A DNA stretch of 64,000 bases from Shigella phage ESh24, in sequence record ON528734. One strand, written 5' to 3'. Below are positions 2,196 through 3,625 of this stretch, piece after piece. Position numbers and translations under genes: made by a program. The notes below the pieces were generated by a model. It was not told the DNA's origin. It did no database searches and was given only the letters and a program-made list of their open reading frames with translations. Every line of letters starts with the position of its first letter. Position 1 is the first letter of the stretch.

Positions 2196-2285
2196 ATGTC
2201 CTCCTTTAAATTAATATTTATCATAAATTTGTTTACTTTCTCAGCTTGTTATGGTATTATAAAATAAATTGCTGAGGATGATATA

Positions 2286-2846
2286 ATGATTAATAAAATT
2301 GTGCATGAAATGGCTTTAAACGGAGATTCATATAAAATATCTTCCGTAGTTGAAAATTTCATACTTAATAAAGTAAAAGAATATTTCACTGATTGTTCAG
2401 TTAGTTATCAAGAAAAAATGGTTTTAACCGATGATACCGAAAAATCAAATAATTTGTTTTGCTCTAATTTTATAACTAAGAAGCGTACTAGAAGATTTGA
2501 TATTGTTATTTCTCGCAACGGTAAAAAGCATATAATTGAAATTAAACACCAAGTTGGTGGAGGTACAGCTATTGATTCGGTTGGAATATATTTAGAAGAT
2601 AAAGAGAAATTAAAAGAATACACAAAAACTGAAAACCCTGTGTCATTGATGATATTAGATTTTTTGCCATGCGGATATTATCCACGTAATAAATGGACAA
2701 AAAGAGAATCATTTACTGATAATCCAACTATCCAAGCAAGATTTAATGAATATGCTAAATCACAAAACGTGTTAGTATTACTATCAAATACATATGATGA
2801 AGAATTATATAATTCGTTTTTTGCTGCAATAAATGAGAGAATATAA
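2286..2846 (+). CDS. hypothetical protein with PD-(D/E)xK nuclease-like motif, translationally coupled to dam
   Basis: 186-aa ORF; motif FDIVIS...HIIEIKH (D72, E85, K87); stop overlaps dam start (TAATG); own early promoter upstream. Confidence 0.55.
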
Positions 2847-3625
2847 TGCTAGGAGCTATTGCGTATACAGGTAATAAACAGTCATTATTACCTGAACTTA
2901 AGTCTCACTTTCCAAAATATGACAGATTCGTGGATTTATTTTGCGGAGGTTTATCAGTATCTTTGAATGTCGATGGTCCTGTATTGGCTAATGATATTCA
3001 AGAACCAATTATTGAAATGTATAAACGTCTTATTAATGTATCATGGGATGACGTATTAAAAGTAATAAAGCAATATAAACTATCAAAAACATCAAAAGAA
3101 GAGTTTTTGAAATTACGTGAAGATTATAATAAAACTAGAGATCCTCTTTTACTTTATGTTCTTCATTTTCACGGGTTTAGTAATATGATTCGTATAAACG
3201 ATAAAGGAAATTTTACTACTCCGTTTGGAAAAAGAACTATAAACAAAAATAGTGAAAAACGCTTTAATCACTTTAAACAAAATTGTAATAAAATAATCTT
3301 TAGTTCATTGCATTTTAAAGATGTTAAAATTTTAGACGGCGATTTTGTATATGTAGATCCTCCATATCTCATAACAGTTGCTGATTATAATAAATTTTGG
3401 TCAGAAGACGAAGAAAAAGACCTTTTAAATCTTTTAGACTCTTTAAATGATAGAGGAATAAAATTTGGGCTGTCGAATGTTTTAGAGCATCACGGAAAGG
3501 AAAACACTCTTCTTAAAGAATGGTCTAAAAAATATAATGTTAAGCATCTTAATAAAAAATACGTCTTTAACATATATCATTCCAAAGAAAAGAATGGAAC
3601 TGATGAAGTATATATTTTTAATTAA
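2846..3625 (+). CDS. dam: DNA adenine methyltransferase Dam (N6-A MTase, DPPY motif)
   Basis: 259 aa, FCGGLSV (SAM-binding) and DPPY catalytic motif; length matches T4 Dam. Confidence 0.85.

Follow-up and report, generated by a model that had tools for sequence, protein, structure and literature searches.

A predicted PD-(D/E)xK nuclease gene overlaps the Dam methyltransferase gene of Shigella phage ESh24: a candidate mobile restriction-modification cassette of T-even phages

Introduction

In Shigella phage ESh24 (sequence record ON528734; the 64,000 nucleotides analysed here, called the window, are the early region of a T2-like Tequatrovirus) the gene of the Dam DNA methyltransferase is directly preceded and overlapped by an open reading frame (ORF) of 186 amino acids (aa). 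Sequence comparison and structure prediction assigned to its product the PD-(D/E)xK fold of restriction endonucleases and a conserved D...ExK site. Comparison of related loci indicates that the promoter and the two genes moved as a block between genome positions and genera. On balance it is probable that the ORF and dam make up a working, phage-borne and mobile Type II restriction-modification (R-M) cassette for GATC, the 186-aa protein being the nuclease (R) and Dam the methyltransferase (M).

Dam of T4 and T2 is among the most studied DNA methyltransferases and is the textbook 'orphan'; according to a review of 2025 (PMC12707154), T4 Dam is a solitary phage methylase, the in vivo function of which 'remains unclear'. 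The results presented here suggest that Dam, in its ancestral and still common state, forms the M half of a mobile R-M-like cassette of two genes, of which T4 would carry a deletion derivative, and that its partner represents a previously unnamed protein family. In a literature search, which covered the older T-even literature thinly and left REBASE outside, no paper was found on a nuclease partner of T-even Dam, on the ORF upstream of the T2 or T4 dam, or on phage-borne GATC restriction in T-even phages.

Results

The ORF upstream of dam and its leader

The elements of the cassette in the window are the following:

About 2208-3625, plus strand: whole cassette (promoter/stem-loop leader, 186-aa ORF and dam), borders set by empty-site comparison
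2231-2260, plus strand: T4-type early (sigma-70-like) promoter, GTTTAC, 18-nt spacer, TGgTATTAT
2238-2278, plus strand: leader stem-loop, 5' arm (2238-2245) in the promoter spacer, 3' arm GCUGAGGA (2271-2278)
2286-2846, plus strand: 186-aa ORF with ATG start, putative PD-(D/E)xK restriction-endonuclease-fold protein, phrog_8706
2844-2848, plus strand: TAATG, stop/start overlap of the ORF and dam
2846-3625, plus strand: dam, D12-class N6-adenine methyltransferase (GATC), 259 aa

An earlier note on this DNA, made from the sequence alone, had described a nuclease-like ORF with its own early promoter, translationally coupled to dam. The ORF was found as described, with 186 codons, an ATG start and plus-strand orientation. 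Its TAA (2844-2846) ends on the A (2846) with which the ATG of dam (2846-2848) begins, and this overlap suggests that translation of dam may be coupled to that of the ORF. A Shine-Dalgarno sequence, GAGGA (2274-2278), stands ahead of the ORF start. In the comparisons with unsaturated synonymous sites, the ratio of non-synonymous to synonymous substitutions (dN/dS) was 0.06 for the pair with a close relative and 0.10-0.19 for the pairs with copies of 60-64% identity, and the proportion of non-synonymous differences was well under that of synonymous ones in every pair compared. On these substitution patterns the ORF is a real gene under purifying selection.

The promoter was likewise present at the site given in the note: GTTTAC (2231-2236) is separated from TATTAT (2255-2260) by an 18-nt spacer that carries TG at 2252-2253. 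In a generic promoter scan this element matched at 9 of 12 positions with an extended -10 box; since the same scan returned 11 sites where 12.8 were expected by chance, the score alone is no better than chance. The weight given to the promoter comes instead from its conservation among the copies of the cassette. GTTTAC-N17/18-TGnTAnnnT stands about 55 nt before the ATG in seven copies (the window, T2, MX01, KPV15 and the metagenomic loci L018, L015 and L005), two of which sit at other genome positions.

The leader of the window folds into an 8-bp stem (z-score -1.96 in RNA folding), the 3' arm of which covers the Shine-Dalgarno sequence. All six cassette leaders that were folded have a stem-loop over the -10 box or the Shine-Dalgarno sequence, with z-scores from -1.9 to -5.6. 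Since the 5' arm lies upstream of the likely transcription start, transcripts reading through from gene 61 would mask the ribosome binding site, while those from the cassette's own promoter would not. In the six leaders (window, L021, L018, L015, L003 and L005) the position of the stem-loop relative to the -10 box or the Shine-Dalgarno sequence is kept and the arm sequences are wholly different; the 14-bp stem of L005 (z-score -5.6) brackets the -10 box.

Predicted fold and conserved residues

The motif residues named in the earlier note are in place: FDIVIS carries D72, and HIIEIKH carries E85 and K87. An AlphaFold2 model, built from an alignment of eight sequences, had a predicted local distance difference test (pLDDT) value of 88.8 and a predicted template modelling score of 0.85. 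Its elements are a helix (15-33), three strands (38-47, 67-77 and 80-88), helices in 95-113 and a strand (119-124), followed by a helix (147-160), a strand (163-167) and a final helix (172-185), and the model thus contains the alpha-beta-beta-beta-alpha-beta core of the PD-(D/E)xK superfamily. Placement of the catalytic residues was judged by their position in the secondary-structure elements of the model: the first long helix carries E23, the second core strand D72, and the third E85 and K87.

Foldseek matches in the PDB were nearly all PD-(D/E)xK nucleases. In a further fold search MunI ranked first, followed by BstEII, BsoBI, BsaWI, PspGI, NgoMIV, PfoI, Bse634I, AgeI, EcoRI, SgrAI and Cfr10I, with the same-fold nucleases Can2, McrC and Bax1 interspersed among them. 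The nuclease fold proposed earlier for the 186-aa protein is thus what both the modelled elements and the structural neighbours predict. According to a review of Type II enzymes (PMC4081073, 2014), the neighbour enzymes belong to the alpha branch, and MboI, which recognizes GATC, has the structural framework of PspGI, NgoMIV and Cfr10I. MunI and the other EcoRI-like Type IIP enzymes of this branch, which produce 4-nt 5' overhangs, resemble the phage protein in size (about 200 aa), and the placement of D...ExK in MunI is the same. The sequence identity between MunI and the phage protein is, however, 13%, the site of MunI is CAATTG, and nothing in the comparison speaks for a common specificity. 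Sequence searches of the PDB, run both with the protein itself and with the profile of its family, gave no useful match, and none was obtained for the protein in NCBIfam.

In nine members of the family, which extend down to 29% identity, the invariant residues are E23, R69, D72, H82, E85, K87, H88 and Q89, the GTAIDS stretch (G93-S98), P118, S120 and D125. From this conservation and from the model, E23, D72, E85 and K87 are the putative catalytic residues.

Relation to the DpnII/MboI family

Two independent models of Type II enzymes gave weak matches over the same stretch of the single protein: residues 28-113 aligned with positions 152-235 of the 278 of Pfam DpnII (PF04556; E 0.0045), and residues 13-109 with positions 146-239 of the 290 of the PADLOC Type II restriction endonuclease model (E 8e-5). 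The former was matched by four of nine family members (best E 8e-5) and the latter by three of the nine (best E 5e-6). The other recurrent matches of the family, BanI, PDDEXK_11 and SfsA, are also PD-(D/E)xK.

For a direct comparison real DpnII-family genes were taken from plasmids and from the protein database. The alignment of the phage family with these PF04556 sequences by hhalign scored 33.3 (P 4.6e-4, probability 33%), pairing E23, D72 and E85 with the PF04556-invariant E150, D195 and E208, and the Gly-rich turn with GGSK. As controls, 60 column shuffles and 60 block shuffles of the phage alignment were used together with the reversed alignment; none of the 120 shuffles reached 33.3 (mean 15-17, maximum 27.9), and the reversed alignment scored 17.5. 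In a model of a DpnII-family member (pLDDT 88.6) the same order of elements recurs at residues 145-263, and a distinct N-terminal domain, about 140 residues long, comes before them. The two cores are collinear, from the Glu helix through a strand, the Asp strand, the Glu-x-(K/N) strand and the Gly-rich turn to the following helix and strand, and the phage protein begins at the equivalent of DpnII residue 140. By sequence search no solved structure of a DpnII-family enzyme was detectable.

The likeness extends to the partner, a Dam-type GATC methylase in both cases, and true DpnII-family nuclease genes typically adjoin Dam-family methylase genes. The DpnII/MboI enzymes are longer (about 285 aa versus 186 aa), and the phage pair differs from DpnII systems in its gene order, R then M, and in the overlap of the genes. 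Two plasmid genes of the DpnII family had no adjoining methylase gene in the gene table of PLSDB, which is incomplete: one (L009, 1950-2777) on C. perfringens pJFP838A, the other (L010, 1089-2747), coding for an N-terminally extended protein of 553 aa, on an S. aureus plasmid beside an integrase gene.

Family distribution and pairing with Dam

The product of dam matches Pfam PF02086 (E 5e-51) and the T4 Dam crystal structures 1yfj and 1q0s; E. coli Dam and M.DpnII (2dpm) are more distant matches. It is 98% identical to T4 Dam, and by this identity it is GATC-specific.

An exhaustive search of 1.84 billion representative proteins with a hidden Markov model of the 186-aa family gave 12 matches, of which all the credible ones are from phages; DpnII was not reached. 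A pattern-limited scan of 185,579 bacterial and archaeal species genomes found no family member, and the further copies in IMG/VR and the JGI metagenomes were near-duplicates only. The family would thus appear as one of minimal restriction-fold proteins confined to T4-like phages. Its copies include those of the window, Shigella phage SP21535, T2 and Dhakavirus MX01, metagenomic copies at 55-63% identity, that of Jiaodavirus KPV15 at 43%, two at about 30%, and two at the metagenome loci L028 and L029, where Dam stands directly next.

A D12/Dam-type methylase gene lies directly 3' of the ORF in all copies with downstream DNA (10 of 10). Eight of the tabulated pairs are intact, and in these the stop of the ORF abuts or overlaps the start of the methyltransferase gene by 0-35 nt; the exception is the frameshifted copy of T2, which ends 13 nt ahead of dam. 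The nuclease-like and methyltransferase genes are therefore adjacent and co-oriented, as in Type II R-M systems. The pair occupies three genome positions. In Tequatrovirus and Dhakavirus it is flanked by dam.1 and gene 56, in the Klebsiella Jiaodaviruses by denB and ndd, and the copy of the locus L005 lies upstream of rIIA. The operon-like tie to Dam proposed in the earlier note was thus seen in every homologue found, and at all three positions.

The sources consulted name the protein hypothetical or uncharacterized and give the function of phrog_8706 as unknown. A T2-type copy (PV648363; L014, 1501-2046) bears the name 'head outer capsid protein' in UniRef, as does one GenBank record (GADU22); the name was evidently taken over by mistake from soc, which lies nearby.

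Presence, absence and loss of the nuclease gene

The R and M states were surveyed from BLAST summary counts over the 508 Tequatrovirus records that match the region, and from the inspection of about a dozen loci. About 150 of the 508 records contain the ORF together with dam (149 cover at least 80% of the ORF and dam region, and about 146-148 have the ORF). In about 300, RB27 and DalCa among them, both are missing and gene 61 and dam.1 run straight to gene 56. Compared with the empty site of DalCa (61 - dam.1 - 56), the cassette starts directly behind ...tcctcctt (about 2207) and ends with the dam stop codon, and RB27 is empty in the same manner; from this comparison the cassette consists of exactly the promoter, the ORF and dam. 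A minority of the records, including all those of T4, have dam without the ORF.

The earlier note had left open whether T4 has a homologous ORF. Alignment gave the answer: T2 has the gene, while T4 has no intact ORF and only an 80-nt 3' remnant. The missing segment is:

2223-2762, plus strand: segment deleted in T4, defined by the T4 sequence and junction mapping

This deletion of 540 bp takes away the promoter and ORF codons 1-159 and keeps the sequence from window position 2763 onward, about 80 nt, directly before dam. The T4-type junction is common to about 42 records. Other, independent lesions also left dam intact: in KarlGJung an N-terminal deletion leaves a stub of 61 aa without the catalytic core, in G4500/G29 the ORF is frameshifted, and in T2 and phage 107 a 1-nt deletion, which is found in the T4 remnant too, replaces the last seven residues. 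The ORF without dam was not evident either in the Tequatrovirus summary counts or among the inspected copies. The decay is thus asymmetric in the summary counts, M without R being seen and R without M not, as in Type II R-M systems. Loss of R with retention of M is a textbook route to an orphan methylase, and we infer that T4 descends from a phage with both genes, R having been lost and M retained, its solitary Dam being secondary. In Jiaodavirus the pair is present in 6 of 151 records, and about 140 have both flanks with approximately 1.4 kb missing.

The leader of the window, known here from its sequence, has the architecture of a PeSL (early promoter plus stem-loop), a sigma-70-like early promoter with a stem-loop before a variable gene. 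Arbiol et al. (2010, PMC2839356) showed for T4-type phages that variable genes are flanked by such elements and that PeSLs undergo recombination among themselves, with release of mini-circles. On its right side the cassette borders on the early promoter of gene 56. Since the cassette lies between promoter elements, recombination between them offers a ready explanation for its loss and transfer, and by analogy its mobility may be most simply explained by recombination between flanking PeSL elements. It resembles the PeSL + ORFan cassettes in its 5' early promoter and stem-loop, in bringing along its own promoter and in presence/absence polymorphism in plastic regions, but differs from them in that its cargo is a two-gene module rather than a single ORFan and in that it is found in other genera too.

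Discussion

Predicted fold, conserved site and pairing with Dam support the R-M-like module suggested in the earlier note. According to the model that we favour, the 186-aa protein would be a compact, catalytically competent Type IIP-like enzyme of the EcoRI/MunI structural branch, descended from, or sister to, the DpnII/MboI catalytic core. Judged by its partner methylase and by the remote homology, it would cut unmethylated GATC and be blocked by Dam methylation. The incoming phage genome would already be Dam-methylated from the previous cycle, and the daughter genomes would be hemimethylated and then completed by Dam made from the same mRNA. Since the phage's own genome would be protected throughout, R can come first and early, without a control protein or a delay. 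The targets would be DNA with unmethylated GATC in the same cell, from co-infecting or superinfecting phages that lack dam, as about 60% of Tequatroviruses do, or from recombinant progeny after loss of the cassette (selfish maintenance); the enzyme would have to tolerate hydroxymethylcytosine (hmC) or glucosyl-hmC. The loss of R with M kept, and never the reverse, is what an active R-M pair predicts.

One part of the earlier proposal did not hold. Attack on host DNA was among the roles considered, but the enterobacterial hosts are Dam+, which makes degradation of their DNA by a methylation-sensitive GATC enzyme unlikely, and this role was rejected. Competitor DNA or selfish maintenance is more plausible.

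Several observations weigh against a working GATC system. The glucosyl-hmC of T-even DNA is a block to most Type II enzymes, and with a methylated host in addition the natural substrate is not obvious. For an R-M system it is unusual that R precedes M and stands behind a strong early promoter. Damaged copies of the ORF occur in several lineages, T2 among them, so selection for R is not strong everywhere. The Pfam DpnII match (16.8 bits) is below the gathering cut-off of 23, and the hhalign probability is just 33%. The N-terminal domain of about 140 residues of the DpnII enzymes is absent from the phage protein, for which reason its specificity need not be GATC, and the invariant block D-x3-G-x-E-x-G-x-D-S-N-x-R-K-N-R-x-G has no counterpart in it. 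The DpnII core has E-x-N with a downstream S-K, while the phage family has E-x-K and T-A: K87 aligns with N210 and T94-A95 with S217-K218, and the lysine may plausibly have moved to another position. Because it falls below the threshold, lacks the N-terminal domain and the motif and has E-x-K for E-x-N...S-K, the phage protein is best described, on its sequence, as remotely related to the DpnII catalytic core and not as a member of PF04556. Activity, GATC specificity and sensitivity to N6-methyladenine (m6A) are presumed properties of the enzyme.

The depletion of GATC was considered as evidence for the cassette and rejected. GATC is the most depleted of the 256 tetramers in the window (60 versus 212 expected, observed/expected 0.28), but the depletion is equally strong (0.33) in a relative without the ORF and dam (DalCa 20000-69999, L024). 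GATC is thus avoided throughout the genus, whether or not a phage now carries the cassette.

The protein could be an active nuclease of another specificity, cutting DNA with unmodified cytosine regardless of m6A as the host-DNA nucleases of T4 do, depending on Dam methylation in the way of DpnI, or nicking hemimethylated sites in the way of MutH. Dam would then be linked to it not for self-protection but, for example, because it creates or marks the substrate. The fold and the catalytic residues indicate a nuclease and leave its specificity unfixed, the DpnII N-terminal domain is absent, a T4-type early promoter would suit attack on host DNA, and virus-encoded m6A-dependent restriction enzymes directed against rival viruses are known (PMC10101028). 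We nevertheless consider this explanation unlikely: R lost with M kept and never R without M is the prediction of self-protection, the nearest sequence family is the methylation-sensitive DpnII/MboI, and a nuclease for host DNA needs no Dam companion at three genome sites.

It is less probable still that the protein is a dead or repurposed relic of a restriction enzyme, serving without cutting as a DNA-binding partner or regulator of Dam in its expression, targeting or processivity. The invariance of E23, D72, E85 and K87 among members at about 30% identity and the strong purifying selection speak against such a relic; the canonical E-x-K of the phage family is nearer to the textbook motif than DpnII's own, and the closest matches in structure are to Type IIP enzymes that are active and about as large. 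R-M relics are common, on the other hand, the link to known nucleases is remote and below threshold, several natural knock-outs of the ORF exist, and the gene is dispensable in T4, where dam was retained and is evidently still expressed. A free-standing homing endonuclease, which would cut cassette-less genomes and carry dam as a passenger through gene conversion in the way of the T4 seg and mob genes, is very improbable. PD-(D/E)xK homing enzymes exist, and the presence/absence polymorphism between conserved genes is like that of the free-standing homing genes of T-even phages (PMC2988022). Instead of a fixed insertion site, however, three unrelated genome positions were found, on which ground a site-specific homing endonuclease was rejected. 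The one neighbour that stays constant is the methylase, for which a homing enzyme has no need, PeSL-type flanks give a nuclease-independent route of movement, and profile and family scans showed no similarity to the known T-even homing families.

If the two genes do form an R-M cassette, the three states found in Tequatrovirus may be compared with the producer, immune and sensitive states of colicins. Phages with both genes (T2-like, ESh24) would be armed, those with M and no R (T4) immune, and those without either (RB27, DalCa and most others) sensitive, the cassette being a phage-versus-phage weapon and a selfish element against T-even genomes with unmethylated GATC. This analogy is offered tentatively, and we would rather expect it to fail than to hold. 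Since co-infecting T-even genomes would be the ones restricted, tolerance of hmC or glucosyl-hmC is a necessity here. Were it true, T-even Dam would gain a function in vivo, immunity to a phage-borne restriction enzyme, and such restriction could contribute to the extreme genus-wide depletion of GATC.

Among known systems, the orphan phage methyltransferases (T4 Dam, P1 Dmt) include the nearly identical T4 enzyme, unlike which the Dam of ESh24 and about 150 relatives is paired with the ORF. Chlorovirus PBCV-1 has a GATC R-M system, R.CviAI/M.CviAI, with early expression (PMC7248222). Like the phage pair it is virus-borne, early and directed at GATC (presumably so for the phage nuclease), but it belongs to a eukaryotic algal virus, and its genes, A579L and A581R, do not overlap. 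Archaeal viruses encode restriction enzymes aimed at rival viruses (PMC10101028). If the GATC cassette proposed here is real, a Type II R-M system would be added to the inter-phage exclusion devices of T-even phages. It would provide a very small candidate GATC enzyme, with possible activity on DNA containing hmC, and a clear-cut case from nature of the origin of an orphan methylase.

Neighbouring genes

Over the locus the window is about 98% identical to Shigella phage SP21535. The order along the plus strand is sp, the 118-aa ORF, 61.1, gene 61, the minus-strand 66-aa ORF, the 186-aa ORF, dam, gene 56 and soc. The neighbours of the cassette are:

445-801, plus strand: 118-aa ORF, standing where T4 has gene 61.2
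970-1998, plus strand: gene 61, primase
1995-2195, minus strand: 66-aa hydrophobic ORF, 'dam.1' (name from RB27), phrog_2024
3686-4204, plus strand: gene 56

RB27 has both gene 61.2 and the 118-aa ORF. Between gene 56 and soc (window 4205-4272) the homing endonuclease gene segF, which T4 has there, is absent; it may be speculated that in T4 crosses SegF-driven conversion around gene 56 could co-convert the region of the ORF and dam. The metagenomic locus L018 has an extra ORF of 93 aa (3657-3938) between dam.1 and the cassette, which matches the C-terminal part of the NTP pyrophosphohydrolase family phrog_4856. The dam.1 frame and gene 61 are convergent, with 4 nt shared at the end of gene 61. 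In T4 the dam.1 frame is intact (locus L001, 3239-3439, plus strand), yet it is unannotated in the T4 RefSeq record NC_000866.

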